A stretch of DNA of 38,216 nt from positions 30,505-68,720 of the forward strand of contig CAYGQI010000001.1 of assembly GCA_964351925.1 (NCBI GenBank). The letters are read 5' to 3'. Source of the stretch: an uncultured Anaerolineales bacterium. Lineage in GTDB: Bacteria > Chloroflexota > Anaerolineae > UBA7937 > B3-Chlor. Position numbers and translations under genes: made by a program. The notes beneath the pieces are model-generated. The model did not search any database, had not been told where the DNA came from, and saw only the letters and a list, made by a program, of their open reading frames with translations. Positions 16,756 through 30,692 of the stretch are shown here, piece by piece (positions within the stretch are counted from its first letter, which is position 1; each line of letters begins with the position of its first letter).

Positions 16756-18300
16756 ATGACCCTCGGATACGGCGGCGACTTTACCTACACCTACAACAAC
16801 AAGCGTATCCACGTCTTCCACTCAGCAAGCAGCACTTGGGTGTGCCAAAGTGGTGGGGATGTGGAACTACTCGTGATTGCGGGTGGCGGTGGAGGAGGGT
16901 CAAGCTCTCCCACCTATTGGGAAGGTGGCGGTGGTGGAGCAGGCGGGCATATCTATGAGGCATCCCACACCGTAGCACCAGGGAACTATACCGTCACTGT
17001 AGGAGGGGGCGGAGGGACCAACAACAATGGCAATCCCTCCATCTTTGATACTCACACGGCGGTCGCGGGCGGGGCAGGAGGCGGTGGGGTCAACAACGAT
17101 CCTGGTAGTTCTGGAGGATCGGGCGGAGGCGGTGGGGCCTCTGGCGCTGCTGGTGCGTCTGGAACTAGTGATCAGGGATATGCCGGTGGTAATTCAACCA
17201 GCAACAATGGTGGTGGAGGCGGCGGATCAGGCGGAGTGGGCGGCTCTCCAACTACAGCTGGCGTTGGAACTTCCCGCAGTATCACAGGACTTGCTTACAC
17301 CTTCTCCAGTGGTGGAACCGGCAATAATGGAAGCTACGCTCGCGACAGTTACACGGGTCATGGTGGACCGGGCAGCAACACAAGTGGTGGGTCTGGAGGA
17401 ACTGGCGGATCGGGCGTGGTTGTATTGTCCTATGACTGTACGGACACGGCCTACATGTCTGCCGAAGGAACTGGTGGGACCATCACCGCAAGCGGGCTAG
17501 ACAGAATCCACACCTTCACATCCTCTGGCACTTTCACTCCAGTAGGAGGGGCAGGCTACGCCAGAGTTCTTGTAGTGGGTGGAGGTGGTGGTGGAGGTAA
17601 TGGTGGTGGTGAGTGGGAGGCTGGCGGAGGCGGAGGCGGTCACGTCATGTATGACTCACTCTGCTACATCGGTGGGGCTACGACTGTCACAGTAGGAGCA
17701 GCAGTGGGAGCGGCGACTGTTGGTCAGAACTCATCCTTTGGTTCATACAACCTCTCGTTGGGAGGTGGGTACGGAGGTAGTTCATCTCCTGGCGGTCCTG
17801 GTGGTTCTAGCGGTGGCGGAAGCTATTCCCAGAGTGGGGGGTCTGTTCGAGCTGCTATCCCATTTGGGTATGTGGGAGCACATGGAACAAGTGGTCCCAA
17901 CTACGGTGGAGGCGGAGGCGGAGCTGGAGAGGTAGGAAACACGGATGGCGCTCGCTACGGCGGAGACGGTATCATCTGCACCATCTATGACGGCTCCAAC
18001 ATCTATTATGGCGGAGGAGGAGGAGGCGCTCCATCTGGCCCAGGGGGAGATGGGGGTGGTGGAACTGGAACAGGCGGGACCGGGGGCTCAGGTTCAGCCA
18101 ACACAGGCGGCGGCGGGGCAGGCGGCTACTCAAGTGGTGGAGGAAATGGCGGTAGTGGCATTGTCATCGTTCGCTATACTATCCTGCCAGTTGCCGCCCC
18201 TTGGCCAGACTTGATCGGATTGACACAATCGTCTGCTGGTCCCATGCAGACATCCATGAAATCAGCACCACGTAGGCGTAATAGGAACGCCTACTACTAG
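16756..18300 (+). CDS. Glycine-rich tail fibre-type protein with two tandem glycine-rich domains
   Basis: Two similar halves. Half 1: RIHVFHSASSTWV..VELLVIAGGGGGG...GNYTVTVGGGG...GSGVVVLSYD. Half 2: RIHTFTSSGTFTP..ARVLVVGGGGGGG...TTVTVGAAVG...GSGIVIVRYT. Confidence 0.65.
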   Translation: MTLGYGGDFTYTYNNKRIHVFHSASSTWVCQSGGDVELLVIAGGGGGGSSSPTYWEGGGGGAGGHIYEASHTVAPGNYTVTVGGGGGTNNNGNPSIFDTHTAVAGGAGGGGVNNDPGSSGGSGGGGGASGAAGASGTSDQGYAGGNSTSNNGGGGGGSGGVGGSPTTAGVGTSRSITGLAYTFSSGGTGNNGSYARDSYTGHGGPGSNTSGGSGGTGGSGVVVLSYDCTDTAYMSAEGTGGTITASGLDRIHTFTSSGTFTPVGGAGYARVLVVGGGGGGGNGGGEWEAGGGGGGHVMYDSLCYIGGATTVTVGAAVGAATVGQNSSFGSYNLSLGGGYGGSSSPGGPGGSSGGGSYSQSGGSVRAAIPFGYVGAHGTSGPNYGGGGGGAGEVGNTDGARYGGDGIICTIYDGSNIYYGGGGGGAPSGPGGDGGGGTGTGGTGGSGSANTGGGGAGGYSSGGGNGGSGIVIVRYTILPVAAPWPDLIGLTQSSAGPMQTSMKSAPRRRNRNAYY

Positions 18301-18308
18301 GAGGAAAC

Positions 18309-18755
18309 ATGGCAGCTTTGAATGGTGTAGCACTGACGTCTGAGGTGGCCCTTGTAGCGGCTACGCCTAAGACGGTCATCCAGCTGATCGCGGCGTCCAA
18401 CCACAGGGTTCGTGTCCTTGGCTGGGGCGTCTTCTTTGATGGTGTCAGCGCCACGGCTGAGCCAGTGCAGGTGCGTCTGCTCCGTCAGTCCACCGCGGGC
18501 ACGATGTCGGCTTTGACCCCAGTAGAGATGCACCCTGCGGACGAGACGATGCAAACCACAGCCTCGTATGGGGCATCTGCTGAGCCGACAGCCGGTGACG
18601 TACTCGATTGTATCGAGTGCCATCCCCAGGGCGGCTACGAGAAGTGGTTCCCGCCCGGATACGAGGTAATCGTGCCCGGCAGCGGGAGGCTTGGTCTGGA
18701 GCTTACAGCACCAGCAGGCGTGAACGTCAGAGCGAAGTTCTTCTTCGAGGAATAG
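18309..18755 (+). CDS. Conserved 148-aa tail-module protein, copy B
   Basis: AGGAGG RBS. 60% identical, with no gaps, to the 14292-14738 product. Confidence 0.7.
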   Translation: MAALNGVALTSEVALVAATPKTVIQLIAASNHRVRVLGWGVFFDGVSATAEPVQVRLLRQSTAGTMSALTPVEMHPADETMQTTASYGASAEPTAGDVLDCIECHPQGGYEKWFPPGYEVIVPGSGRLGLELTAPAGVNVRAKFFFEE

Positions 18756-18758
18756 TCC

Positions 18759-19598
18759 ATGGCCGAACCGTCTGGAAGCAACTTCCCAACGTCGCTGGAC
18801 GACGCCACGTCTCTGTTGGCGGCTGTGACCAACCAGAAATCCTTTGTGGTTTCTGGTGCTCATGGCGGCGGGGCCACAACCATCACTGTCACCGGGGCCA
18901 TCTCTGGCGTTACAGCCCCAGGCTATGTGATCAACGGACGCACAGGAGAGATTGTTCACTTCGGTGGCATCTCTGGCTCTGACTTCACGGGATGTACTCG
19001 TGGGGCAGACGGCACTTCGTCCACCGGAATGAACGACTTGGATGTACTCTATCATGCCAGTGTGGCAAAGTACCACAACCAGCTACGAGCAGCTGCCATA
19101 GCCATCGAGACGATCTTGGGAGTGAGTCCGAATGTGATCGATGATACGGTGGCGGCATCCGCCAGCCCCACGTCGGTCGCTCAGTATCTCGACATGGTGG
19201 CGAACAGACTCAAGGCCATCACTGGCGAGGCCAGCTGGGTCACAGCTCCCGACGCCTCCCTCTCCACACTCAACGGGTACTTCTCCACCCTCACATGGAC
19301 GAACTTCACGTATGAGCACGGCTGGGTAGACTATGACACTACCTACAACCCTGGCGGATATGTCAAGGACCCGTTTGGATGGGTTCATCTGCGGGGTTTG
19401 GTTAGGACTGGGACTGTGGGAACGAGTATCGCCACGCTACCGGCTGGCTATAGACCATCTCACATAGTGTTGTGGGATTCACAGGCCAATGGTGCCCTGT
19501 GCAGGACGGACGTCAATCCATCGGGCACCGTCGTTGCCAGCTCTGGTAGCAACGCCTGGTGGTCTCTCGAGGGCTGTGTCTGGTTGGCTTATCAATGA
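18759..19598 (+). CDS. Tail fibre / receptor-binding-type protein
   Basis: 279 aa. C-terminal GWVHLRGLV..G.....IATLPAGYRP....W....G.........G.V.....N.WWSLEG resembles a globular fibre-tip pattern. Confidence 0.5.
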   Translation: MAEPSGSNFPTSLDDATSLLAAVTNQKSFVVSGAHGGGATTITVTGAISGVTAPGYVINGRTGEIVHFGGISGSDFTGCTRGADGTSSTGMNDLDVLYHASVAKYHNQLRAAAIAIETILGVSPNVIDDTVAASASPTSVAQYLDMVANRLKAITGEASWVTAPDASLSTLNGYFSTLTWTNFTYEHGWVDYDTTYNPGGYVKDPFGWVHLRGLVRTGTVGTSIATLPAGYRPSHIVLWDSQANGALCRTDVNPSGTVVASSGSNAWWSLEGCVWLAYQ

Positions 19599-20194
19599 CC
19601 GATCCTAACGTCGAGGGCAAGATAGAAGCGATAGTGGGTTATGGGGATGACCCGGAGCACATCTCGGCGGTCCCGCTACGTGCCTACATTCAGCGCCCAT
19701 GGCGTCTCTTCCTGACAGGCGCGAGGAGCATAGGCAACTATGCTCTTGCATCCGGAACGATCCTGATTGATCTCGTTCCAGAAACCTCTGCCCTTTATCT
19801 GGCCTACTCCACATTGACCGGGGATGCTGATGCCCACTCGTGGGGAGAAGCATACGCCTGGGGTTCAGCTGACCTGTGTTGGGGAGGCGTCGAGTCTCTG
19901 CATTATGTCGAGCCAACCTTCGATCTGGGCGAGATTCTGTACATCTCTCCAGACTCACAGGACATCAAGGTTGAGTCGGGGTCCAAGCATGAAAGCCAGG
20001 TGTGGACGCAGACAGGCGGGATCATGCGCGGGCATCCTGCTCAGTGGTGGGTGTCCTACATGCCCAGCCACATCGTGGACTACGGTTTCAGCTCGGCATC
20101 CAGCAAGACAAGGATGGGGGACCTGTCAGGCACCACCAGCGCCGAGATAGCTCCACACGGCACCGCCAACGTGCGAACCAAGGGCGGTATATGA
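19595..20194 (+). CDS. Hypothetical tail-module protein
   Basis: ATGA overlap with the upstream stop at 19595-19598. 199 aa. Confidence 0.55.
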   Translation: MTDPNVEGKIEAIVGYGDDPEHISAVPLRAYIQRPWRLFLTGARSIGNYALASGTILIDLVPETSALYLAYSTLTGDADAHSWGEAYAWGSADLCWGGVESLHYVEPTFDLGEILYISPDSQDIKVESGSKHESQVWTQTGGIMRGHPAQWWVSYMPSHIVDYGFSSASSKTRMGDLSGTTSAEIAPHGTANVRTKGGI

Positions 20195-24389: not shown

Positions 24390-25141
24390 TCCAAGGACAA
24401 GACTACTCACACTACAACGCCAAGGTGAACTTCCCGCTGGCCATCAAGAATGGTCAGAAGGTCTTCTACCTCAAGTCGTCCGAGGGCAACAACTGGAGCG
24501 ACGACACCTACGAGGAGAAGCGCCTGGCCTGCATCCCTACCAAGGCTCCCTTCGCTCCCTACCACTTCATGAAGATGGCCTACACGGCTGTCAGTCAGGC
24601 GGCATGGTTCAAGAAGTGTGCTCCAGACCCAACACCTCTTCCACCGATCGCAGACATCGAGCAGCACCCGGCTGAGCCGGACAACCTGCTCATCCCTATG
24701 GCCAAGAAGCGCTCACATGTACAAACGCTTCTCCTAGAGACCGAGAGGCTGTTTGGTCGCAGGCCCATTATCTACACTGGGGTCTACTGGTGGAAGGACA
24801 ACATCGGGGACGTGTCTTGGGCGAAGGACTACAAGTTCATCATCGCTGGCTACCTGTTCTTCAAGCAAGCCATCCCTGCCAACTTCAACATCTGGTGGCC
24901 AGGACCCCGCACCCTGTTCTACATCCCACGCGAGAACGTGATTGGATGGCAGTGGGCGGGCGACATCCCGAACATCAGCAATACCACATACCCCTGGTCT
25001 ACTGGAGCTCAAGACTTCAACGTGTTTGACGAAGTTCAGATCGCTGCTCTCGTGAGCGGCAGTACAGAGACGCCTCCGCTGACTGAGGCCGAGAAGCTTG
25101 ATCTCGTGTACAAGTGGTATCTCGAATCTCACGGAGGCTAA
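24386..25141 (+). CDS. Endolysin, glycoside hydrolase family 25 (muramidase)
   Basis: GQDYSHY (D-x-S-H-W/Y box), SSEGNNWSDDTY, APYHF, PPIADIEQ: the usual GH25 motif order. Confidence 0.75.
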   Translation: MIQGQDYSHYNAKVNFPLAIKNGQKVFYLKSSEGNNWSDDTYEEKRLACIPTKAPFAPYHFMKMAYTAVSQAAWFKKCAPDPTPLPPIADIEQHPAEPDNLLIPMAKKRSHVQTLLLETERLFGRRPIIYTGVYWWKDNIGDVSWAKDYKFIIAGYLFFKQAIPANFNIWWPGPRTLFYIPRENVIGWQWAGDIPNISNTTYPWSTGAQDFNVFDEVQIAALVSGSTETPPLTEAEKLDLVYKWYLESHGG

Positions 25142-25142
25142 C

Positions 25143-25520
25143 ATGGCACCCAAGAAGCGCGTGTCCCAAATCAACGCTGAATGTCAGGCACTCATGATCT
25201 CCATCCCGCCGCTGCTGGTCGATCTGAAAGAAGGACAAACGGAGTTGGGGAAGAAAATCCAGAATGTTGATGAGGCCATTCGGGGCAACGGCAAGGAGGG
25301 CCTTGTCGCCAGGGTGACGCGTTTGGAAACTGCGAACACTCTTGATCGCCAACAAACTGTGGAGGCGAAGGAACTGGCTCTCGATCTGGTCAAGAACCCC
25401 CCAAAACCGCCTAGCCCAACCCAGTGGTGGTACGCGCCCATCTTCGGTATCGGAGCGTCTATCCTGATCTGGTTCTTCACACAGGAACTTCCCAAGATTA
25501 TCGCCCATATTGGTCCATAA
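25143..25520 (+). CDS. Tail-anchored membrane protein, probably lysis-associated
   Basis: GGAGG RBS. 125 aa. Coiled-coil N-terminus and one C-terminal TM segment (WWYAPIFGIGASILIWFF). Lies immediately after the endolysin. Confidence 0.5.
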   Translation: MAPKKRVSQINAECQALMISIPPLLVDLKEGQTELGKKIQNVDEAIRGNGKEGLVARVTRLETANTLDRQQTVEAKELALDLVKNPPKPPSPTQWWYAPIFGIGASILIWFFTQELPKIIAHIGP

Positions 25521-25534
25521 TCCAAAGGGGGGAC

Positions 25535-25563
25535 TTGACAAACCTCAAAAAGAGGTGTATTCT
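25535..25563 (+). promoter_or_regulatory. Sigma70-like promoter for the tRNA array
   Basis: TTGACA (25535-25540), 17-nt spacer, TATTCT (25558-25563). The first tRNA starts at 25573. Confidence 0.55.
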
Positions 25564-25572
25564 TAGACAGTC

Positions 25573-25645
25573 CGAGGAATGGTGTAGACCGGGAGCACGC
25601 TAGCCCTGGGAGCTAGTGGCGGTGGTTCAAACCCACCTTCTTCGA
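25573..25645 (+). tRNA. tRNA-Pro(TGG)
   Basis: Acceptor CGAGGAA/TTCTTCG. D GTGT/GCAC. AC stem CTAGC/GCTAG, loop CCTGGGA (C33). T arm GGTGG-TTCAAAC-CCACC. Confidence 0.75.
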
Positions 25646-25647
25646 CC

Positions 25648-25720
25648 TGCGGGTTAAGTTGGAGTGGAACCACGGTGGCCTCATAAGCCGCGTAGACGAG
25701 TTCAATTCTCGTACCCGCTA
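25648..25720 (+). tRNA. tRNA-Met(CAT) type (Met, fMet or Ile2 not resolved)
   Basis: AC stem GTGGC/GCCGC, loop CTCATAA. T arm ACGAG-TTCAATT-CTCGT. Acceptor GCGGGT/ACCCGC with an unpaired 1:72 or an irregular acceptor-D junction. Confidence 0.6.
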
Positions 25721-25727
25721 CCTTCAT

Positions 25728-25799
25728 ACCAGAGTGGCGCAACGGTAGCGCAAGCCGCTGTTAACGGCGAGGTTGCAGGTCCGAATCCTGCCTTTGGTG
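25728..25799 (+). tRNA. tRNA-Asn(GTT)
   Basis: Acceptor ACCAGAG/CTTTGGT. D GCGC/GCGC. Loop CTGTTAA. T arm GCAGG-TCCGAAT-CCTGC. CCA encoded. Confidence 0.85.
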
Positions 25800-25847
25800 C
25801 CAAGAAGTCGAGTACCGCTTACCTTTACAACTGATCGGCAATAACAG

Positions 25848-25920
25848 GCCAGTGAAGCACAATCGGCAGTGCGGTCGCCCTGTAAGCGACAGGCAGTGGG
25901 TTCGACTCCCACCTCTGGCT
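25848..25920 (+). tRNA. tRNA-Thr(TGT)
   Basis: Acceptor GCCAGTG/CTCTGGC (one mismatch). D GCAC/GTGC. AC GTCGC/GCGAC, loop CCTGTAA (C33). T arm GTGGG-TTCGACT-CCCAC. Confidence 0.8.
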
Positions 25921-25988
25921 CCTGAGAGTTCTGCACATCAGCGTTGAAATCTGGCTGTTCTCACGGCGCGCTAAAGAGACAGCAACAC

Positions 25989-26060
25989 GCAGGCATGGGG
26001 TAAAGGATAGCCCAGCACCCTCCTAAGGTGCGTGTGAGCGTTCGAGTCGCTCTGCTTGCT
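25989..26060 (+). tRNA. tRNA-Arg(CCT)
   Basis: Acceptor GCAGGCA/TGCTTGC. AC GCACC/GGTGC, loop CTCCTAA. T arm GAGCG-TTCGAGT-CGCTC. Confidence 0.85.
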
Positions 26061-26064
26061 CCTT

Positions 26065-26136
26065 GCTTCTGTAGATAACGGACAGTCGCTCCGGCTTCTA
26101 ACCGGATGAGTGCAGGTTCGAATCCTGCCAGAAGCT
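26065..26136 (+). tRNA. tRNA-Arg(TCT)
   Basis: Acceptor GCTTCTG/CAGAAGC. AC TCCGG/CCGGA, loop CTTCTAA. T arm GCAGG-TTCGAAT-CCTGC. Weak D stem. Confidence 0.75.
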
Positions 26137-26202
26137 CCTGCCGGGGGTCTCTCTTTGAGAGCACGGCGTCCGAAATTCCCTCTGCCCCCGAGGGTCGGCT
26201 AC

Positions 26203-26273
26203 GCATCTGTAGGCTAATGGATGACCGTTGGGCCACGGACCCAAAGGTGAGCGTTCAAGTCGCTCCAGATGCT
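26203..26273 (+). tRNA. tRNA-Arg(ACG)
   Basis: Acceptor GCATCTG/CAGATGC. AC TTGGG/CCCAA, loop CCACGGA (C33). T arm GAGCG-TTCAAGT-CGCTC. Confidence 0.75.
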
Positions 26274-26317
26274 CCTGTGGAAATTGACAGAGTCACCACT
26301 CAAAGAACTGTCCACAC

Positions 26318-26389
26318 AGACTGTTCGTCTAGCGGCCAGGATAAGCGTCTCCAAAACGTTTGACGGGGGTTCGAGTCCCTCACGGTCTG
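26318..26389 (+). tRNA. tRNA-Trp(CCA)
   Basis: Acceptor AGACTGT/ACGGTCT. D GTCT/GGAT. AC AGCGT/ACGTT, loop CTCCAAA. T arm GGGGG-TTCGAGT-CCCTC. Confidence 0.8.
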
Positions 26390-26395
26390 CCTCGT

Positions 26396-26468
26396 TAGGT
26401 GGTGGTGTAACCGGCAAGCACAGTAGGCTGTGGACCTGCGGGAGAGGGTTCAAGGCCCTCCCATCTGA
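26396..26468 (+). tRNA. tRNA-His(GTG)
   Basis: Acceptor TAGGTGG/CCATCTG. D GTGT/GCAC. AC GTAGG/CCTGC, loop CTGTGGA. T arm GAGGG-TTCAAGG-CCCTC. The -1 position is T opposite A73, not G-1:C73. Confidence 0.8.
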
Positions 26469-26502
26469 CCTAGCAAGAATAGTCACTTAAAGTGACTACA
26501 AT

Positions 26503-26573
26503 GGTTCTGTGGCGTAACGGCAGCGCAACTCCCTGTCGAGGAGTAGGCGAGGGATCGACACCCTTCAGGACCG
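26503..26573 (+). tRNA. tRNA-Asp(GTC)
   Basis: Acceptor GGTTCTG/CAGGACC. D GCGT/GCGC. AC ACTCC/GGAGT, loop CTGTCGA. T arm GAGGG-ATCGACA-CCCTT (A54). Confidence 0.8.
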
Positions 26574-26578
26574 CCTTT

Positions 26579-26650
26579 GGGCGCGTGATGTCAACGGGAG
26601 CATGCTGCACCTGCAATGCAGCCGTGGGAGTTCAAATCTCCCCGTGTCCA
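26579..26650 (+). tRNA. tRNA-Ala(TGC)
   Basis: Acceptor GGGCGCG/CGTGTCC with the G3:U70 alanine identity pair. AC CTGCA/TGCAG, loop CCTGCAA (C33). T arm GGGAG-TTCAAAT-CTCCC. Confidence 0.85.
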
Positions 26651-26657
26651 CCTTCAT

Positions 26658-26728
26658 TCAAGAGTCGGCTAACGGTAGGCCGTAGGGCCTTGGACCCTAC
26701 TGTGGAGGTCCGAATCCTTCCTCTTGAA
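26658..26728 (+). tRNA. tRNA-Gln(TTG)
   Basis: Acceptor TCAAGAG/CTCTTGA (U1:A72). D GGCT/GGCC. AC TAGGG/CCCTA, loop CCTTGGA (C33). T arm GGAGG-TCCGAAT-CCTTC. Confidence 0.8.
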
Positions 26729-26733
26729 CCTAC

Positions 26734-26818
26734 GGAGTGGTGGCAGAGCGGCTGAATGCGCTTCCCCGCTAAGGAAGTTGGGGTAACTCCCACGTTGGTT
26801 CGAATCCAACCCTCTCCG
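26734..26818 (+). tRNA. tRNA-Ser(GCT)
   Basis: Acceptor GGAGTGG/CCTCTCC (one mismatch). AC CTTCC/GGAAG, loop CCGCTAA (C33). Long variable arm TTGGGGTAACTCCCAC. T arm GTTGG-TTCGAAT-CCAAC. Confidence 0.8.
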
Positions 26819-26824
26819 CCTCGT

Positions 26825-26894
26825 GGATGTATGGTGTAACGGTGCACGCATGACTGTAGATCATCAGGGCGTGGTTCGACTCCACGTGCATCCA
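26825..26894 (+). tRNA. tRNA-Tyr(GTA), short variable arm
   Basis: Acceptor GGATGTA/TGCATCC. D GTGT/GCAC. Loop CTGTAGA. 4-nt variable region. T arm CGTGG-TTCGACT-CCACG. A73. Confidence 0.75.
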
Positions 26895-26901
26895 CCTTCG
26901 A

Positions 26902-26972
26902 TCTCTCCTAGTGCAACGGTAGCACGCTTGGCTCTGAACCAAGTAATCTACGTCCGAATCGTGGGGAGAGAA
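26902..26972 (+). tRNA. tRNA-Gln(CTG)
   Basis: Acceptor TCTCTCC/GGAGAGA (U1:A72). D GTGC/GCAC. AC CTTGG/CCAAG, loop CTCTGAA. T arm CTACG-TCCGAAT-CGTGG. Confidence 0.85.
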
Positions 26973-26977
26973 CCTAT

Positions 26978-27050
26978 GCCGCTGAAGCTAACCCAGTGGA
27001 AGCGTCTGCCTGAAGAGCAGAAGGGGTCGGCGCGACACCGACTGGCGGCA
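26978..27050 (+). tRNA. tRNA-Phe(GAA)
   Basis: Acceptor GCCGCTG/TGGCGGC. AC TCTGC/GCAGA, loop CTGAAGA. T arm GTCGG-CGCGACA-CCGAC (non-canonical T-loop). Confidence 0.75.
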
Positions 27051-27056
27051 CCTTAC

Positions 27057-27143
27057 GGAAGAGCTAACATCGGTGTGTGCAGCCGTCTTGAAAACGGTAG
27101 TCCGGTGAAACCCGGATTGGGAGTTCAACTCTCTCCTCTTCCG
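27057..27143 (+). tRNA. tRNA-Ser(TGA)
   Basis: Acceptor GGAAGAG/CTCTTCC. AC GCCGT/ACGGT, loop CTTGAAA. Long variable arm with a CCGG/CCGG stem. T arm GGGAG-TTCAACT-CTCTC. Irregular D arm. Confidence 0.75.
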
Positions 27144-27148
27144 CCTCT

Positions 27149-27219
27149 GGCTTCTAGTCCGAACGGCTAGGAAGTCGCCTGCAAAGCGACCGTAGAGAGT
27201 TCGACTCTCTCAGAAGCCT
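27149..27219 (+). tRNA. tRNA-Cys(GCA)
   Basis: Acceptor GGCTTCT/AGAAGCC. AC GTCGC/GCGAC, loop CTGCAAA. T arm GAGAG-TTCGACT-CTCTC. Discriminator U73. Confidence 0.85.
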
Positions 27220-27225
27220 CCTCGT

Positions 27226-27300
27226 GCGCCCATAGGAGAATCGGCATATCCGCTGGTCTTAGAAACCAGGTCAATGGTGGTTCGAATCCACCTGGGCGTA
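27226..27300 (+). tRNA. tRNA-Leu(TAG), short variable arm
   Basis: Acceptor GCGCCCA/TGGGCGT. AC CTGGT/ACCAG, loop CTTAGAA. 6-nt variable region. T arm GGTGG-TTCGAAT-CCACC. A73. CCA encoded. Confidence 0.75.
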
Positions 27301-27381
27301 CCAAAAGGCCCTCGGAAGTACAACGGGTGGTCGGCACAACAGTGCCTTCTGGCTTGGGGACGCCAAAAACAATCCCCACCA

Positions 27382-27456
27382 GCATCCTGGCCGGTAAGGT
27401 GATCGGAGACTGTCTTATAAACAGTCCACAATCTGGTCCGATGCCAGAAGGATGCA
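27382..27456 (+). tRNA. tRNA-Ile(TAT)
   Basis: Acceptor GCATCCT/AGGATGC. D CCGG/TCGG. AC GACTG(T)/(A)CAGTC, loop CTTATAA. T arm TCTGG-TCCGATG-CCAGA. Confidence 0.7.
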
Positions 27457-27461
27457 CCTAT

Positions 27462-27532
27462 GGTCTCATCCGCTAAAGGGAGGCGAGCGGCCCCTCAAGC
27501 CGCAAATGCGATTTCGAGATTCGCTGAGACCA
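27462..27532 (+). tRNA. tRNA-Glu(CTC)
   Basis: Acceptor GGTCTCA/TGAGACC. D CGCT/GGCG. AC GCGGC/GCCGC, loop CCCTCAA (C33). T arm GCGAT-TTCGAGA-TTCGC with a U.U at the loop-closing pair. Confidence 0.7.
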
Positions 27533-27537
27533 CCTAC

Positions 27538-27610
27538 GTCACCATCGTCTAACGGTTCAGGATGGGACCCTTTCAAGGTCTGGATCGGAGTTCGAATCTC
27601 CGTGGTGATA
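27538..27610 (+). tRNA. tRNA-Glu(TTC)
   Basis: Acceptor GTCACCA/TGGTGAT. AC GGACC/GGTCT, loop CTTTCAA. T arm CGGAG-TTCGAAT-CTCCG. Confidence 0.8.
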
Positions 27611-27615
27611 CCTGC

Positions 27616-27687
27616 GCATTCGTAGCTGAGCGGTAAAGCAGTTCGTTGCCAACGAACAGATCGTGGGTCCAAATCCCACCGAATGCT
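27616..27687 (+). tRNA. tRNA-Gly(GCC)
   Basis: Acceptor GCATTCG/CGAATGC. AC GTTCG/CGAAC, loop TTGCCAA. T arm GTGGG-TCCAAAT-CCCAC. Confidence 0.85.
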
Positions 27688-27693
27688 CCTCGT

Positions 27694-27767
27694 GCCTGTG
27701 TAGCTCAATTGGTCAGAGCGCTTCTCCTACAAAGAAGAGGCTGGTGGTTCGAGCCCACCCAGAGGCA
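27694..27767 (+). tRNA. tRNA-Val(TAC)
   Basis: Acceptor GCCTGTG/CAGAGGC (one mismatch). D GCTC/GAGC. AC CTTCT/AGAAG, loop CCTACAA (C33). T arm GGTGG-TTCGAGC-CCACC. Confidence 0.8.
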
Positions 27768-27771
27768 CCTT

Positions 27772-27846
27772 GCTCTCATAGCCCAACATGGCAGAGGCGG
27801 CAGCTTCAAAACCTGTCCAGTGCTAGTTCGAATCTAGCTGGGAGCA
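27772..27846 (+). tRNA. tRNA-Leu(CAA), short variable arm (anticodon-arm register uncertain)
   Basis: Acceptor GCTCTCA/TGGGAGC. AC GCAGC/CCTGT (C31.C39 mismatch), loop TTCAAAA. An alternative fold gives a 9-nt loop. T arm GCTAG-TTCGAAT-CTAGC. A73. Confidence 0.6.
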
Positions 27847-28027
27847 CCTGCGGCTGAGACTCGGTGAAACGCCGAGGGAAGGGAGAACAAACCGGAAAGT
27901 AGACGGTCTCCTGTGCGTAAGTGGGAAACTCGACCCAGAGTAGCGAGGGTGTCCAGCGGTGAATGGGTATTGCCAGCGCAAGCCCCTACTGGGCGGTGAC
28001 ACCGAAACCCACCTTGAGGCCGCACAT
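27847..28027 (+). ncRNA. Unclassified structured RNA embedded in the tRNA array (not a tRNA)
   Basis: 181 nt between two complete tRNAs with no plausible + strand ORF. Terminal helix TGCGGC (27849-54)/GCCGCA (28019-24). Internal hairpins: CTCGG-TGAAACG-CCGAG (27860-76), GGAGA..CCG-GAAAGTAGA-CGG..TCTCC (27882-911), GGTGTC (27948-53)/GACACC (27998-28003) enclosing TTGC-CAGC-GCAA (27970-81). Confidence 0.5.
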
Positions 28028-28100
28028 GCTCTGCGAGCCAGTCGGTCGAAGGCACTCGTCTGATACACGAGTTTGCGTGGTTCAACTCCACGGCGGAGCA
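28028..28100 (+). tRNA. tRNA-Ile(GAT)
   Basis: Acceptor GCTCTGC/GCGGAGC. AC CTCGT/ACGAG, loop CTGATAC. T arm CGTGG-TTCAACT-CCACG. Confidence 0.8.
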
Positions 28101-28139
28101 CCTGTTTCAGTTGTTTAGCAATATTGCTAAACATCTCAT

Positions 28140-28211
28140 ACCAGCATAGCTCAGATGGAGAGCAAGCGGCCTTTACCCGCGAGGTCGGGGACCCGAGCCC
28201 CCCTGCTGGTA
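28140..28211 (+). tRNA. tRNA-Lys(TTT)
   Basis: Acceptor ACCAGCA/TGCTGGT. D GCTC/GAGC. AC (A)GCGG/CCGC(G), loop CCTTTAC (C33). Aberrant T arm GGGGA-CCCGAGC-CCCCC. Confidence 0.65.
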
Positions 28212-28218
28212 CCTAAAT

Positions 28219-28291
28219 GCTTCTGTGGCGCAATCGGCAGCGCAACCGGCCCTTAACCGGAAGGCTGGAGGATCATACCCTCCCAGGAGCA
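28219..28291 (+). tRNA. tRNA-Lys(CTT)
   Basis: Acceptor GCTTCTG/CAGGAGC. D GCGC/GCGC. AC (A)CCGG/CCGG(A), loop CCCTTAA (C33). T arm GGAGG-ATCATAC-CCTCC (A54). Confidence 0.75.
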
Positions 28292-28296
28292 CCTGT

Positions 28297-28369
28297 GCTT
28301 CGGTAGTTGAGTAGGCAAAACACCCCTTTCGTAAAGGGGAGGACAGAGGTTCGAAGCCTCTCCGAAGCT
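28297..28369 (+). tRNA. tRNA-Thr(CGT)
   Basis: Acceptor GCTTCGG/CCGAAGC. AC CCCCT/AGGGG, loop TTCGTAA. T arm AGAGG-TTCGAAG-CCTCT. Confidence 0.85.
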
Positions 28370-28455
28370 CCTTGGGTAAGGCTCCTAGCCGACACGGCAT
28401 CAGGCGCGGGGCTGACCGATGGGACATAACCGTGGATCACCCCATCTCCCAACAT

Positions 28456-28528
28456 GCCACTGTAGCTCAGCCGGTAGAGCGCCGACTCGGTAAGTCGGAG
28501 GCCGACGGATCATCACCGTCCTGTGGCT
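28456..28528 (+). tRNA. tRNA-Thr(GGT)
   Basis: Acceptor GCCACTG/CTGTGGC (one mismatch). D GCTC/GAGC. AC CCGAC/GTCGG, loop TCGGTAA (C33). T arm GACGG-ATCATCA-CCGTC (A54). Confidence 0.8.
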
Positions 28529-28533
28529 CCTAT

Positions 28534-28604
28534 GCGGGCTTGGTATATGGGTTGTGCCTCAGCCTTCCAAGCTGATGAAGCGAGTCCGAATCTCGCAGCC
28601 CGCT
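28534..28604 (+). tRNA. tRNA-Gly(TCC)
   Basis: Acceptor GCGGGCT/AGCCCGC. AC TCAGC/GCTGA, loop CTTCCAA. T arm GCGAG-TCCGAAT-CTCGC. CCA encoded. Confidence 0.85.
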
Positions 28605-28615
28605 CCAAGAAAGAG

Positions 28616-28650
28616 AAGACCCCAGGTTGTTTGCCTGGGGTCTTTTCGTT
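28616..28650. terminator. Bidirectional intrinsic terminator between the convergent tRNA array and the - strand operon
   Basis: AAGACCCCAGG-TTGTTTG-CCTGGGGTCTT: 11-bp perfect stem. TTTCGTTT follows on the + strand and a T-rich CTCTTTCTT follows on the - strand. Confidence 0.8.
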
Positions 28651-29415
28651 TCAGATCGACTTGCGTGTCCACTTGCTGTATGGCTCCAACTTCTGGAACA
28701 GGTTTTGGAGTATCTCGACGTCCTTCTTGTTGTGCTCCACGATGAAGCCCAGAGCAGTCTTATCTCCATACCCCGCCTCCATCCACAGTTCGATGTCAAC
28801 GTTGTCCTTCTCTCCGGTCTTGCCCTGCAAGCGCAAGAAGCGAGACACGGCTCCGAGATTGCGCCTGTGTAGTCTCAAGTTGGAGCGGGCGCGGTAGAAG
28901 AGATCGAAGTGGTAGATGGAACCATACTCTGGAAAGGGCAGGTCCCAGAACAGCGCACGGCTCCGCATGTATGGTATGTCGAAGCCGGTCCCATAGAAGG
29001 TGGCCACAATATGCACGTCCTGTATGGCCTCCAGCAGTTCGGTAACGATTCGCTTGTCTCGTAGCTTGGGGTCGGTACATTCTTTCGGCGTGATGATCCC
29101 ATGACGGGGCCTCTTCTCATCCTCAACCTTCATGAACCACGACAACATGAAGCCGTGATTGGCGGCTAGGTCGGTGGTCTCGATGTCAAGGAAGCCGATC
29201 TTCATGCCCTGCTTGCGGAACCAGGGGATAGCCCTCACCGGCACTTCCACGTCAGGGTCATTCTCGTGACGCATATCGTTCAGCCGGTTGGCTACCGATC
29301 GTTCAGTGCGGTCCATCCTGACCGCCATAGTCCTCTGGCTCAGGCCCTTCTTGAAGAGCCGCTTCAGTTCTCGTTCCTCCGCCTTCGTCCACTTCTTCGG
29401 CTTGTAGTCATCCAT
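28651..29415 (-). CDS. DEDDh (DnaQ/RNase H-like) 3'-5' exonuclease with an N-terminal Myb/HTH-like segment
   Basis: ExoI FLDIETTD, ExoII FYGTGFDIPY, ExoIII HNKKD. N-terminal WTKAEERELKRLFKKGLSQRTMAVRM. Confidence 0.7.
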   Translation of the reverse strand: MDDYKPKKWTKAEERELKRLFKKGLSQRTMAVRMDRTERSVANRLNDMRHENDPDVEVPVRAIPWFRKQGMKIGFLDIETTDLAANHGFMLSWFMKVEDEKRPRHGIITPKECTDPKLRDKRIVTELLEAIQDVHIVATFYGTGFDIPYMRSRALFWDLPFPEYGSIYHFDLFYRARSNLRLHRRNLGAVSRFLRLQGKTGEKDNVDIELWMEAGYGDKTALGFIVEHNKKDVEILQNLFQKLEPYSKWTRKSI

Positions 29416-29434
29416 GACGTCTCCCTTTCATGAT

Positions 29435-29468
29435 GGAAGAGAGGGAGCTTTTCGGCCCCCTCTCTTCC
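29435..29468 (-). terminator. Strong stem-loop between the membrane-protein gene and the exonuclease gene (no clear U-tract)
   Basis: GGAAGAGAGGG (29435-45) pairs with CCCTCTCTTCC (29458-68): 11-bp perfect stem. Confidence 0.45.
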
Positions 29469-29479
29469 GGGTCGCCCCA

Positions 29480-29833
29480 CTAGGCCGGACGTGCGTCCTT
29501 TGCCACAGTTACGTCCTTGGCCTCCGGTAGCAATCCAAATGCTCCCTGTCCTGCTCCAATCGCAACCAACACGCCAAATGCGAAGTTCACAAAGGCGGAA
29601 GATGTCACGCATAGAAGCGGTAGTCCGAGGGCATTTGCGAATGCTGGGAAGCAACCTCCAAAGGCGACGATAGCACCAGCCACCAAGTAGATGCCCAAGA
29701 TGATGTACTTCTTGGTCTCCGTGGCCAGAGCTCCCCACTTCACACGCAGTCCCGGCACGTACTGGAACAGCAGCGTGAAGAAGAGAACCACGATAGTCGT
29801 GATCCCCGCAACAGAAAACAGTCCTTCAGACAT
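29480..29833 (-). CDS. Small multi-pass membrane protein (holin-like topology; function unknown)
   Basis: Start taken at MSEGLF (ATG 29833), which overlaps the upstream stop by 8 nt. Three to four hydrophobic segments. Confidence 0.55.
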   Translation of the reverse strand: MSEGLFSVAGITTIVVLFFTLLFQYVPGLRVKWGALATETKKYIILGIYLVAGAIVAFGGCFPAFANALGLPLLCVTSSAFVNFAFGVLVAIGAGQGAFGLLPEAKDVTVAKDARPA

Positions 29834-30692
29834 ATTCAGCCTCCTGTGCCTGTTCGGCAACTACTTCTATTGTAGCAGGTTTCGGTCTCGCAATCAACGT
29901 GATATCGGACGTGAGGTGAGGCAGATAGGGGTCCATCGTGACTCCAACCCATATCACCTCGAAGCCCGCACGCTCCGCGAGGAACTTCAGCGTCTCTGGC
30001 AAGAATGCCCCTACATGTGGCAATCCAAGAACTCTCGACGGACGACCAGTCAGATGTGGGATGTCGATGACCAAGTAACCTGTACTCTTCAGTCTGCTCT
30101 TAAGTGAGAGCAAGTAGTCGTAGGGCTCCACGATGTGCTCAAGGACATGCAGCGAGCTTACCACGTCCCACATGTCATCAGCGGCATCACCGAGGCTTGG
30201 GCGCACTTCTAGGCGCTTGTCCAAGCACATCTTGCGTGTATTGTCGTTGGGCTCAATGCCAATGGCATGGGCTCCCTCCCCATACTGCTTCCAGACATGC
30301 TCAAGTAGCTCACCTGACCCACATCCCACATCGAGCCACCAGAAGATGTTGGGCAGCTCCATCCCCGCCTCTTTGGCATACCTCAGCACACGCTCGGCTC
30401 TCTGTCTCTCGAGGATGATGTCCATTGGACGCAGGCCCTCACGCATGCCATTGTTGGTCACGGTGCGGTACTCCTTCTCATAGAAACGCTTCATGCTTTC
30501 CTCGTCCAGCGTGCTCCCCTGAAAGACCATGCCGCAGTCGGGACAGGCGATGTAGAAGATCATGATGTAGGGCTTGACGCGGCCCTCCATGGATGAGCCA
30601 TACACCACGAAGGCCCCATCCGACTTGCCGCAGGCCGGGCAGTGTGTGCGCTTCTCCCAACTCCACTTGAGTGTCTGCTCACCCTCTGTCAT
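29826..30692 (-). CDS. Class I SAM-dependent methyltransferase with an N-terminal zinc ribbon
   Basis: Motif I WWLDVGCGSGE. HVLEH block. N-terminal CPACG...(x24)...CPDCG. Confidence 0.7.
   Translation of the reverse strand: MTEGEQTLKWSWEKRTHCPACGKSDGAFVVYGSSMEGRVKPYIMIFYIACPDCGMVFQGSTLDEESMKRFYEKEYRTVTNNGMREGLRPMDIILERQRAERVLRYAKEAGMELPNIFWWLDVGCGSGELLEHVWKQYGEGAHAIGIEPNDNTRKMCLDKRLEVRPSLGDAADDMWDVVSSLHVLEHIVEPYDYLLSLKSRLKSTGYLVIDIPHLTGRPSRVLGLPHVGAFLPETLKFLAERAGFEVIWVGVTMDPYLPHLTSDITLIARPKPATIEVVAEQAQEAEYV

Follow-up and report, generated by a model that had tools for sequence, protein, structure and literature searches.

Within the window, the whole 38,216-nt stretch of DNA that was analyzed, we identified 31 tRNA genes at 25573-28607, all on the + strand, which occupy 3,035 bp at a density of 10.2 tRNAs/kb and whose anticodons represent all 20 amino acids. 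Genes were called with ARAGORN, with Rfam model RF00005 at its gathering score, and with a custom covariance model, R1, built from the 25 Rfam-supported class-I tRNAs of the array and searched against the whole window with filters off. The genes and associated features are as follows.

25535-25563 (+): putative sigma-70-like promoter, TTGACA-17-TATTCT; 10/12 consensus matches; 9 nt 5' of the first tRNA
25573-25647 (+): tRNA-Pro TGG; ARAGORN; Rfam 53.0 bits; C33, loop CCTGGGA
25648-25722 (+): tRNA-Met CAT, initiator-like; ARAGORN; Rfam 31.3 bits; R1 45.3 bits
25728-25802 (+): tRNA-Asn GTT; ARAGORN; Rfam 59.4 bits; CCA encoded; T-loop TCCGAAT
25848-25922 (+): tRNA-Thr TGT; ARAGORN; Rfam 56.5 bits; C33
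25989-26062 (+): tRNA-Arg CCT; ARAGORN; Rfam 52.9 bits
26065-26138 (+): tRNA-Arg TCT; ARAGORN; Rfam 51.4 bits
26203-26275 (+): tRNA-Arg ACG; ARAGORN; Rfam 49.5 bits; C33
26318-26391 (+): tRNA-Trp CCA; ARAGORN; Rfam 50.2 bits; G73
26396-26470 (+): tRNA-His GTG; ARAGORN; Rfam 43.9 bits; U1.G72, A73, G-1 not encoded
26503-26575 (+): tRNA-Asp GTC; ARAGORN; Rfam 57.1 bits; T-loop ATCGACA
26579-26652 (+): tRNA-Ala TGC; ARAGORN; Rfam 45.3 bits; G3.U70, A73; C33
26658-26730 (+): tRNA-Gln TTG; ARAGORN; Rfam 52.0 bits; C33; T-loop TCCGAAT
26734-26820 (+): tRNA-Ser GCT; ARAGORN; Rfam 49.3 bits; class II, long variable arm; C33
26825-26896 (+): tRNA-Tyr GTA; ARAGORN; Rfam 50.9 bits; 72 nt, no long variable arm
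26902-26974 (+): tRNA-Gln CTG; ARAGORN; Rfam 57.1 bits; T-loop TCCGAAT
26978-27052 (+): tRNA-Phe GAA; Rfam 40.8 bits; ARAGORN only at -ps90; T-loop CGCGACA
27057-27145 (+): tRNA-Ser TGA; ARAGORN; class II; tRNA-Sec model 42.8 bits, below its cut-off of 47
27149-27221 (+): tRNA-Cys GCA; ARAGORN; no RF00005 match; held-out R1 55.1 bits; U73
27226-27303 (+): tRNA-Leu TAG; ARAGORN; Rfam 56.2 bits; 78 nt with CCA, short variable loop
27382-27458 (+): tRNA-Ile TAT; ARAGORN; no RF00005 match; held-out R1 28.4 bits (weakest class-I member); T-loop TCCGATG
27462-27534 (+): tRNA-Glu CTC; ARAGORN only at -ps90; held-out R1 50.2 bits; C33; T.T mismatch 53:61
27538-27612 (+): tRNA-Glu TTC; ARAGORN; Rfam 54.8 bits
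27616-27689 (+): tRNA-Gly GCC; ARAGORN; Rfam 68.3 bits; U73; T-loop TCCAAAT
27694-27769 (+): tRNA-Val TAC; Rfam 63.8 bits with alignment; C33; labelled Cys ACA by ARAGORN
27772-27848 (+): tRNA-Leu CAA; ARAGORN; Rfam 44.8 bits; 77 nt, short variable loop, 31:39 mismatch
27849-28027 (+): 179-nt non-tRNA spacer; 7-bp closing helix; fold z = -2.0
28028-28102 (+): tRNA-Ile GAT; ARAGORN; no RF00005 match; held-out R1 39.4 bits
28140-28213 (+): tRNA-Lys TTT; no ARAGORN call; Rfam 43.2 bits with alignment; C33, C38; T-loop CCCGAGC
28219-28293 (+): tRNA-Lys CTT; ARAGORN; Rfam 53.8 bits; C33; A54...T58 swap
28297-28371 (+): tRNA-Thr CGT; ARAGORN; Rfam 62.9 bits
28372-28455 (+): 84-nt spacer; two strain alleles
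28456-28530 (+): tRNA-Thr GGT; ARAGORN; Rfam 53.7 bits; C33; A54...T58 swap
28534-28607 (+): tRNA-Gly TCC; ARAGORN; Rfam 50.0 bits; CCA encoded; T-loop TCCGAAT
28616-28652 (both strands): predicted hairpin terminator, hairpin proper 28616-28644

Detection of the 31 tRNA genes

Default ARAGORN found 28 tRNAs and the Rfam covariance scan 26, and the union of the two comprises 30. Phe GAA and Lys TTT, absent from default ARAGORN, were recovered by Rfam, and Cys GCA, Ile TAT, Ile GAT and Ser TGA were called by ARAGORN and not by RF00005; the thirty-first gene, Glu CTC, was matched by ARAGORN only at the relaxed threshold. Cys, Ile TAT, Ile GAT and Glu CTC gave no RF00005 match even at E ≤ 10. All four passed R1 when held out of it, and the best R1 match outside the array within the window scored 16.5 bits. 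All 31 genes thus have the backing of one or more tRNA finders, and each folds into a cloverleaf with 18-25 standard pairs.

The ARAGORN call of Cys ACA at 27694-27769 was rejected, as the Rfam alignment reads this gene as Val UAC, with all 5 bp of the stem CUUCU/AGAAG paired and CCUACAA as its loop; the miscall arises because the tRNA carries C33. Neither program alone recovered the full set of 20 isotypes, Rfam lacking Cys and Ile, and default ARAGORN lacking Phe and mislabelling Val, but the pooled set is complete and all 31 anticodons agree with the original prediction. A spacing of 4-7 nt was predicted for most neighbors; 21 of 30 junctions measure 0-5 nt after C75 (2-7 nt after N73), with Pro TGG adjoining Met CAT at 0 nt, and the other nine measure 32-179 nt.

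Flanking signals, genomic setting and strain variation

The array is bracketed, as predicted, by a promoter-like site and a bidirectional hairpin. The TTGACA-17-TATTCT-type site occurs once in 24500-29500, where shuffled sequence averages 1.5; the match is no better than chance would give in 5 kb. The terminator hairpin has an 11-bp stem with 7 G-C pairs (-31 kcal/mol, z = -6.8) and T-rich tails on both strands, and is common to the array (+) and a convergent exonuclease gene (-), whose stop codon (28651-28653) is overlapped by the T-tail. From these motifs we infer that the whole array is a single transcription unit. The 179-nt spacer had no Rfam or R1 match and no homologue among 171 other loci, and the alleles of the 84-nt spacer differ at 17 sites while keeping the pairing of the same four helices.

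Upstream of the array lie capsid, minor tail protein and GH25 lysin genes, and downstream, on the opposite strand, genes for PolA, UDG, a RecA-like protein, a PD-(D/E)XK nuclease and the exonuclease, placing the array where converging phage late and replication genes meet. This setting supports the predicted carriage by a phage. The genes identified within the window include none for a CCA-adding enzyme or for tRNA processing. The same array was recovered at >99.7% identity in at least 11 sequencing runs, and 16 contigs showed one variable site within a tRNA gene over 3 kb.

Departures from canonical tRNA structure

U33 and T54-U55 are almost invariant in working tRNAs. Besides its unusual density, the array stands out for the number of tRNAs that depart from such 'universal' rules: C33 replaces U33 in 11 of 31, a non-standard T-loop without T54-U55 is likewise present in 11 of 31, and 18 of 31 deviate at one or the other, so that full function is not to be assumed. 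C74C75 is encoded in all 31 genes (chance p about 1e-34), and position 76 is T rather than A in 28 of them (p about 1e-16); these 28 tRNAs therefore need a CCA-adding enzyme. Bacterial Tyr and Leu tRNAs typically have a long variable arm, which the Tyr and both Leu tRNAs of the array lack. The sole Met (CAT) tRNA looks like an initiator (U1.U72 mismatch, G2-C71, C3-G70, G4-C69, A73, loop CUCAUAA), so that AUG at internal positions, which makes up 2.3% of codons, may go unserved. Identity elements are of bacterial type: Ala G3.U70 and A73; U73 in Gly and Cys; G73 in Trp, Asn, Asp and Ser; and G1-C72 and C2-G71 in Thr.

Comparison with known tRNA arrays

The original prediction held that a phage array for every amino acid is uncommon, which stands, but mycobacteriophages, mycobacterial chromosomes and plasmids are known to carry arrays covering all 20 amino acids (PMC5966550), and the present one is therefore not new in kind. 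By the published definition it qualifies as a tRNA array unit. Its known counterparts, in mycobacteriophage clusters C, M and V and Mycobacterium chromosome and plasmid units (Tran et al. 2016; Morgado & Vicente 2018, PMC5966550), share at least 20 tightly packed same-strand tRNA genes, all 20 isotypes, carriage on mobile elements and a repertoire that overlaps that of the host itself. In contrast to them, the present array has no internal ORFs or HNH endonucleases, is denser (10.2 tRNAs/kb versus about 4-6/kb in mycobacteriophages and 2-9/kb in chromosomal arrays; PMC5966550), and shows C33 and T-loop departures far more often. No array-level sequence similarity was found to any GenBank phage or plasmid, and the closest syntenic relative has zero tRNAs.

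The Streptomyces phage TunaTartare (Stanwilliamsviridae, 131 kb) has an almost equal anticodon repertoire, the shared orders Ile TAT-Glu CTC-Glu TTC-Gly GCC and Val TAC-Leu CAA, and a homologous short Leu(CAA) with the 31:39 mismatch (75% identity); most genes in both lack a fully encoded CCA, with N73-C-T ends in TunaTartare versus N73-CC-T here. Its tRNAs, however, lie scattered across about 35 kb and are interspersed with small ORFs, HNH endonucleases, an RNA ligase, a polynucleotide kinase and a Ro-like protein, and all 28 called by ARAGORN have U33 and a TTC T-loop.

Uncultured phages represented by 52-112 kb contigs from IMG/VR and JGI (L107/L057/L058, L068, L103/L120, L109 and L141) carry arrays of 12-22 tRNAs, fewer than the 31 here, located no more than about 3 kb downstream from a homologous DEDD exonuclease gene (44-47% identity). 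As in the present array, their genes end most often in CCT, several have a short Leu and Tyr, and an initiator-like Met and a Trp-His-Asp block are present. The order Ile TAT-Glu CTC-Glu TTC recurs in L107 as in TunaTartare, Val-UAC with C33 is found in L107 and L068, and tRNA-Tyr GTA is 91% identical to short Tyr tRNAs in L041 and L044. The phages with arrays of 12-22 tRNAs have 32-40% GC, and their PolA is only 19-24% identical to that of the present phage; unlike the present array, theirs share a strand with the exonuclease gene, are interrupted by ORFs and contain at most one C33 tRNA each, versus 11 here.

The tRNA genes of phages T4 and T5 form polycistronic clusters processed by host RNase P, and some T4 tRNAs do not encode CCA and require host 3' trimming and CCA addition. 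The T4 operon has only 8 tRNAs and also encodes two small stable RNAs with no assigned role, to which the structured spacers of the array may be analogous. T5-like arrays encode full CCA and have interspersed ORFs; T5-like phage FZ41 shares a terminal Thr-Gly(TCC) pair and a 78-nt Leu with the present array but, unlike it, encodes full CCA in 9/9 genes.

Functional interpretation

The original interpretation is partly supported overall, and we consider it probable that this is a genuine phage-borne array whose 31 tRNAs are made from one precursor and processed and charged by the host to yield a near-complete decoder set. Host RNA polymerase would start at the sigma-70-like promoter and stop at the shared hairpin, giving a precursor of ~3.1 kb. 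In bacteria, the CCA end of a tRNA pairs with RNase P RNA; by this established biology, host RNase P would cut each tRNA 5' end, with C74C75 able to pair with its RNA. The cut would leave 0-5 extra bases on 21 tRNAs, to be trimmed by exonuclease to CC, 28 of the 31 would receive A76 from a CCA-adding enzyme, and host synthetases would charge the tRNAs, whose identity elements are of bacterial type.

The set matches the phage's codon usage: 84% of the phage's own codons could be read under standard wobble, rising to 99.6% with U34 reading whole four-codon boxes, the only sense codons without a possible reader being TTA (2 of 10,766 codons) and CGG (46). This match, the backing of all 31 genes by tRNA finders and of the held-out genes by R1, the cloverleaf pairing, the bacterial-type identity elements, the promoter-like site and terminator, the phage flanks, recovery in at least 11 runs, variation that spares the tRNAs, CC at 74-75 and T at 76, and the gene order and CCT ends common to distant relatives' arrays support the proposed explanation. 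Weighing against it are C33, the absent T54-U55, the four RF00005-invisible genes, the short Tyr and Leu, His without G-1, the chance-level promoter match, the lack of a CCA-adding or processing gene in the window, and the tRNA-less syntenic relative.

An unlikely alternative is that the array mainly replaces host tRNAs lost to cleavage by anticodon nucleases or to other defences that target tRNAs, with C33 and altered T-loops making the phage tRNAs poor substrates. Anticodon-loop changes at nuclease sites in phage tRNAs are a published hypothesis (PMC10264068; see also PMC11555353). C33 is found in 11/31 tRNAs here versus 6/170 in other phage loci (Fisher p = 1.4e-6) and 0/28 in TunaTartare, and Val-UAC with C33 is retained in three lineages ranging from 35% to 57% GC. 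PrrC targets tRNA-Lys, and both Lys tRNAs carry C33; VapC-type nucleases, however, are known to cut on the 3' side of the anticodon loop and are not known to cut at position 33, and the tRNA set is complete rather than aimed at a few isotypes. Moreover, for gamma-toxin, the one nuclease with data considered here, U33C left cleavage unchanged (PMC2275089).

Compensation for codons that the phage uses more than its host, the classical account of phage tRNAs (PMC10264068, PMC13015707), is consistent with the matched set and with the two unread codons being among the phage's rarest; nearly every codon is covered rather than a chosen few, however, including the phage's own rare AAA (7% of Lys codons) and ATA (8% of Ile codons), and we regard this account as improbable.

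Least plausible is a partly decayed array of many pseudogenes or non-translational tRNA-like RNAs with a working set below 20 amino acids, to which the 18 deviating tRNAs, Lys TTT (T-loop CCCGAGC, A.C pair at 53:61), Glu CTC (T.T at 53:61), Met (irregular D-arm, only 31 bits), the representation of Val, Ala, Pro and Lys by C33 tRNAs only, and short tRNA-part matches in the 179-nt spacer (families D11 and D18; possible tRNA relics) would point, but against which stand intact stems in all array tRNAs, A54...T58 swaps that keep the 54:58 pair reversed, a Val anticodon arm identical in L068 (35% GC), a short Tyr conserved across distant phages and strain variation that spares tRNA genes.

If the array is indeed a host-processed decoder set, it would provide the phage with near-complete decoding matched to its own codons, and would sustain phage translation when host tRNAs are scarce, degraded or cleaved.

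Thirty-one tRNA genes on one strand cover all 20 amino acids

The genes in 25573–28607 are tRNA genes within a phage. The original prediction, an array of 31 tRNA genes on the + strand at 25535–28650 serving all 20 amino acids, is correct and well described, and its count was recovered by the gene finders jointly, with each of them falling short when used alone. ARAGORN at default settings, run on the whole window, called 28 tRNA genes, all on the + strand within 25573–28607, and no tRNA elsewhere in the window. Twenty-six of the 31 genes reached the Rfam RF00005 gathering score of 29 bits (31.3–68.3 bits). United, the two sets comprise 30 genes: Phe GAA (40.8 bits) and Lys TTT (43.2 bits) were contributed by Rfam and not by default ARAGORN, and Ser TGA, Cys GCA, Ile TAT and Ile GAT, which lie below the RF00005 gathering score, by ARAGORN. 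The remaining gene, Glu CTC (27462–27534), was called by ARAGORN once its threshold was reduced to 90%.

Four genes (Cys GCA, Ile TAT, Ile GAT and Glu CTC) gave no RF00005 match even at E ≤ 10. A custom covariance model, R1, was trained on the 25 class-I array genes with Rfam support and run unfiltered across the entire window. The genes withheld from training reached 55.1 (Cys), 50.2 (Glu CTC), 39.4 (Ile GAT) and 28.4 bits (Ile TAT), in support of the full count, and the top match outside the array reached 16.5 bits; Ser TGA, at 16.3 bits, was on a par with that best non-array match. All 30 ARAGORN structures contain 18–25 standard cloverleaf pairs per gene, and the cloverleaf of Lys TTT was taken from the Rfam alignment. 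The acceptor, D, anticodon and T stems and the 7-nt anticodon loop are those of a canonical cloverleaf.

The predicted anticodons agree in 31 of 31 cases after a single correction of the ARAGORN output, and they cover 20 of 20 amino acids. ARAGORN labelled the gene at 27694 Cys ACA because it prefers U33; this label is an artefact, as the Rfam alignment gives Val UAC with a perfect stem (CUUCU/AGAAG) and the loop CCUACAA.

The array is densely packed between predicted transcription signals

The array is flanked by two predicted signals:

25535–25563: predicted promoter, TTGACA-17-TATTCT, 9 nt 5' of tRNA-Pro
28616–28644: predicted hairpin terminator, 11-bp stem, -31 kcal/mol, z = -6.8

The promoter is the sole consensus match in 5 kb, where shuffled sequence averages 1.5. 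The terminator hairpin begins 9 nt past the final tRNA, and its T-tail overlaps the stop codon of a convergent exonuclease gene (28651–29415, - strand); the hairpin can therefore serve both units. Beside this one consensus promoter and one strong terminator, the array contains a weak terminator-like site at 26134–26148.

With 31 genes in 3,035 bp (10.2 tRNAs per kb), the array qualifies as a tRNA array unit, a term that calls for 20 or more tRNA genes packed at 2 or more per kb (Tran 2016; Morgado & Vicente 2018; PMC5966550), also when counted by default ARAGORN (28 genes). Densities of 2–9 per kb have been reported for known units (PMC5966550). No ORFs lie inside the array. Twenty-one of the 30 inter-tRNA junctions have 0–5 nt after C75, the Pro and Met genes adjoining with no gap, and the other nine measure 32–179 nt. 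Among the short spacers, TCGT is used four times, TAT three times, and TAC and TTCAT twice each.

Codon coverage fits a complete tRNA set

Codon usage was counted over 10,766 codons in 43 window ORFs. Watson–Crick reading by the array anticodons accounts for 60% of phage codons, and standard wobble (G:U, U:G and inosine) renders 84% readable; the value rises to 99.6% if four-codon reading is granted to the single U34 tRNAs of the Leu, Val, Ser, Pro, Thr and Ala boxes. The only codons with no possible reader are CGG (n = 46) and TTA (n = 2), the latter being nearly missing from the phage (2 of 779 Leu codons, 2 of 10,766 overall). Internal ATG, at 2.3% of codons, joins the unread set if the CAT tRNA serves initiation only. 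Because coverage is nearly full and includes readers for the phage-rare codons AAA and ATA (7% of Lys and 8% of Ile codons, respectively), the codon pattern is more in keeping with a complete set than with selective compensation.

Array tRNAs depart repeatedly from canonical sequence rules

Position 33 is C in 11 of the 31 tRNAs (Pro, Thr TGT, Arg ACG, Ala, Gln TTG, Ser GCT, Glu CTC, Val, Lys TTT, Lys CTT and Thr GGT) and U in the remaining 20. All 11 C33 loops are unambiguous 7-nt loops with Watson–Crick closing pairs. C33 occurred in 6 of 170 distinct tRNAs of the other loci compared (Fisher p = 1.4e-6) and in 0 of 28 tRNAs of the Streptomyces phage TunaTartare. Val-UAC carries C33 in the array and in two uncultured phages, L068 and L107, and its anticodon arm is identical in the array phage (57% GC) and L068 (35% GC). 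Since the same substitution recurs in three phages, and the same arm across such different base compositions, C33 is tolerated and inherited, not a product of random decay.

The T-loop is similarly affected. T54-U55 is absent from 11 of 31 tRNAs (six have TC, three AT, Phe has CG and Lys TTT has CC), compared with 22 of 170 in other loci (p = 0.006), and C56 is present in all 31. Lys CTT and Thr GGT have A54 with T58, such that the usual T54-A58 pair is reversed.

C74C75 is encoded in 31 of 31 genes (chance approximately 1e-34). Position 76 is T in 28 genes (chance approximately 1e-16) and A in three (Asn, Leu TAG and Gly TCC), with the Lys TTT entry set by hand from the Rfam alignment. CCT is also the most frequent 3' ending in distant relatives, at 50–75% in L107, L068, L103 and L109. 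TunaTartare tRNAs end in C-T-T in place of the CC-T of the array, and the T5-like phage FZ41 encodes CCA in 9 of 9 tRNAs, compared with 3 of 31 here.

Tyr (72 nt) and both Leu tRNAs (77–78 nt) lack the long variable arm, which both Ser tRNAs have. The short Tyr is 91% identical to the Tyr tRNAs of two other loci (L041 and L044), and short Leu tRNAs also occur in L107, L068, L109, TunaTartare and FZ41.

The sole CAT tRNA has U1.U72, G2-C71, C3-G70, G4-C69, A73 and the loop CUCAUAA. Its acceptor end is thus that expected of an initiator (unpaired 1:72, G2-C71, C3-G70 and A73), a type assigned by comparison with E. coli tRNA-fMet. Bacterial initiators also have G-C pairs at all three of 29-31:39-41 and a purine at 11 opposite a pyrimidine at 24. 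Here the anticodon stem reads G29-C41, G30-C40 and C31-G39, with the third G-C pair inverted; the D-arm is irregular, and its best reading is G11-C24. The Met tRNAs of several relatives are likewise unpaired at 1:72. tRNA-His (26396–26470) has A73 and U1.G72 and no encoded G-1; the T at its -1 position could form a pair with A73. Relatives have C, A or T at position 73 of tRNA-His. A tRNA-His of this kind, with A73 and lacking G-1, is known from eukaryotes and from one alphaproteobacterial clade.

Strain variation is concentrated in one structured spacer

Sixteen near-identical contigs contain 19 variable sites across 25535–28650, only one of them inside a tRNA gene. The avoidance of tRNA genes fits purifying selection, with the caveat of a very low overall diversity. 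Of the 19 sites, 17 fall in the 84-nt spacer at 28372–28455, which separates Thr CGT from Thr GGT. All 17 changes come from one strain and affect 20% of the spacer sites with zero indels. The divergent copy is:

L008 9215–9298, - strand: allele B of the 84-nt spacer

A four-helix fold of this spacer is completely paired in both alleles. All six stem changes keep pairing, including two double compensatory changes and two G.U to G-C changes, a pattern of weak statistical weight with two alleles only. The spacer may be a small stable RNA freed by tRNA processing.

The longest spacer, 179 nt at 27849–28027, separates Leu CAA from Ile GAT; it is closed by a 7-bp helix and has a fold z of -2.0. It matched neither Rfam nor R1, and no homologues of the spacers were found in 171 other loci. 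Its only tRNA-like matches are two short ones, to a Ser variable arm (family D18) and an Asn/Asp D-arm region (family D11); given these, it may derive from one or two former tRNAs or be an RNA in its own right. A general origin of the long spacers as decayed tRNAs is disfavoured, as R1 finds nothing in them. Two perfect AT-rich spacer hairpins, at 26480–26499 (AGTCACTTAAAGTGACT, z = -4.0) and 28109–28134 (GTTTAGCAATATTGCTAAAC, z = -5.7), may be processing signals or protein-binding sites.

The array lies inside a mid-sized phage genome

Structural genes lie upstream of the array and replication genes downstream. The upstream genes are on the + strand and specify a major head protein, a minor tail protein, a glycine-rich domain protein and a GH25 lysin; those downstream, on the - strand, specify the exonuclease, a methyltransferase, a PD-(D/E)XK nuclease, a RecA-like protein, UDG and a family-A DNA polymerase (PolA). 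No integrase was found in the window. Most ORFs other than those named match no family; of the 19 ORFs scanned against PHROGs, 15 had no family match. A 1,356-aa ORF at 27–4097, just 5' of the capsid gene, matches nothing in Pfam or PHROG and corresponds to no exact protein on record. The window has no close match among GenBank phages or plasmids, and the capsid is approximately 31% identical to capsids of Bacillus megaterium podophages and human-gut phage contigs.

The phage is mid-sized, the longest contig with the exonuclease gene measuring 68,720 nt, and was recovered at >99.7% identity from assemblies of at least 11 sequencing runs. One strain (ERR4334736, L014) is >99.8% identical from 19966 on and divergent upstream save for a 479-nt piece at 18288–18766. 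The region divergent from this strain at 18767–19965 encodes Laminin_G_3-domain proteins, which are probably tail fibres, and the divergence suggests receptor-binding module swapping.

The lysin is 63% identical to one on L186 (JBBAAB010000001.1; 45.9 kb, 58% GC), a contig binned with a groundwater Thermoleophilia (Actinomycetota) metagenome-assembled genome. L186 also encodes a 51%-identical homologue of the 126-aa protein at 29480–29860, and no tRNAs were found in the 10.7 kb of it examined. The lysin gives the only hint, a weak one, that the host may be an actinobacterium.

The methyltransferase (29826–30692, - strand) has an N-terminal zinc-ribbon-like stretch and weakly matches the family of the tRNA cmo5U34 enzyme CmoB, at 28.8 bits (PF08003) and at 33.6 bits against a cut-off of 275 (TIGR00452). 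We do not favour a CmoB-like role in tRNA modification: the match is limited to the SAM-binding core, probably reflecting the common fold alone, and the gene is kept in the array-less relative L020. A role of the exonuclease in tRNA trimming was likewise rejected, as its nearest solved relatives are family-B DNA polymerase exonuclease domains and the DNA repair exonuclease MrfB, and it also occurs in relatives without tRNAs.

Related tRNA clusters recur at the exonuclease module boundary

The nearest syntenic relative, L020 (SRR22452315), has the same gene order and is 56%, 74% and 53% identical in PolA, the RecA-like protein and the exonuclease, respectively. At its junction (in 8159–9020), approximately 100 nt and a hairpin lie between the exonuclease gene and the convergent genes, and no tRNA is present in 17.6 kb. 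The convergent junction is thus the same but tRNA-free, and arrays have therefore been gained or lost at it. Three groundwater relatives (L022–L024) also have no tRNAs.

A search seeded by an alignment of exonuclease homologues returned 160 loci. Among them, ARAGORN identified several more distant uncultured phages (L107/L057/L058, L068, L103/L120, L109 and L141) that carry 12–22 tRNAs no more than approximately 3 kb downstream of the homologous exonuclease gene. Their GC content is 32–40%, with exonuclease identities of 44–47% and PolA identities of 19–24%. Local gene orders common to these arrays and the one described here are Trp-His-Asp and Ile TAT-Glu CTC-Glu TTC. Because these distant phages carry tRNAs at a homologous gene and share local order, the exonuclease module boundary is a recurrent home of related tRNA clusters. 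The present array is the largest and most compact of the clusters found, and its orientation relative to the exonuclease gene is opposite to that in the distant relatives. TunaTartare shares the Ile TAT-Glu CTC-Glu TTC-Gly GCC block and the Val TAC-Leu CAA pair with the array.

BLAST of the array against GenBank phages, near and distant, and against plasmids returned single-tRNA matches only, never an array. Pattern scans of IMG/VR matched neither the short Leu(CAA) nor the anticodon arm of the C33 Val tRNA, and the Val-Leu junction had no exact match in GTDB genomes. Genes for the Ro-like RNA-binding protein Ro60/TROVE (L022 124–1704, L023 404–1987 and L025 10259–11893) are carried by array-less groundwater relatives and by the TunaTartare tRNA region, and the window has none.

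Proposed processing and role of the array

We propose that the array would be transcribed as one RNA from promoter to terminator. RNase P would cleave every 5' end, aided by the C74C75 of all genes, and exonucleases would remove the trailers, which are very short, as far as CC. A76 would then come from a CCA-adding enzyme, a step that would be obligatory for 28 of the tRNAs, and host synthetases would presumably charge the products. Identity elements are mostly bacterial, including G3.U70 in Ala, U73 in Gly and Cys, and G73 in Trp.

The probable role would be to sustain phage translation, and candidate reasons for such a need are codon mismatch, host tRNA loss in infection and tRNA-cleaving defences. 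With respect to the last, an anti-nuclease reading of C33 (PMC10264068) is attractive but unproven. Nuclease-resistant phage tRNAs (van den Berg et al. 2023) would be expected to differ from the host tRNA in the anticodon loop, at the nuclease cleavage site. The idea that C33 blocks anticodon nucleases in general is weakened by the finding that U33C left gamma-toxin cleavage unchanged (PMC2275089). A far-reaching version would make the array a hardened, near self-sufficient decoder set, in which C33 (in a third of tRNAs), altered positions 54-55 (in another third) and T76 throughout were selected to evade tRNA-targeting nucleases or modification-dependent toxins while remaining ribosome-competent, and the structured spacers were released as small RNAs with a role in host–phage conflict; we regard this as improbable.

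The original prediction saw an uncommon phage array that suggested independence from, or competition with, the host tRNA pool. That interpretation is reasonable, but the rarity was overstated: mycobacteriophages, as well as the chromosomes and plasmids of mycobacteria, are already known to carry arrays of all 20 isotypes (PMC5966550). The array stands out by its density, its lack of internal ORFs, its potential to read almost every codon of the phage and its heavy load of non-canonical nucleotides. The features most worth pursuing, none of them part of that prediction, are C33, the CC-U ends, the short Leu and Tyr tRNAs and the structured hypervariable spacer.

Phage tRNA arrays have been debated as compensation for codon usage, as replacements for degraded host tRNAs, or as a means of escaping tRNA-cutting defences, and the array described here is a compact, extreme case for this debate. 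Because many of its tRNAs break the rules of U33, T54-U55, encoded A76 and a long Leu/Tyr arm, it is also a natural test set for which tRNA features are needed by the ribosome, synthetases and processing enzymes, or are used by defence nucleases.
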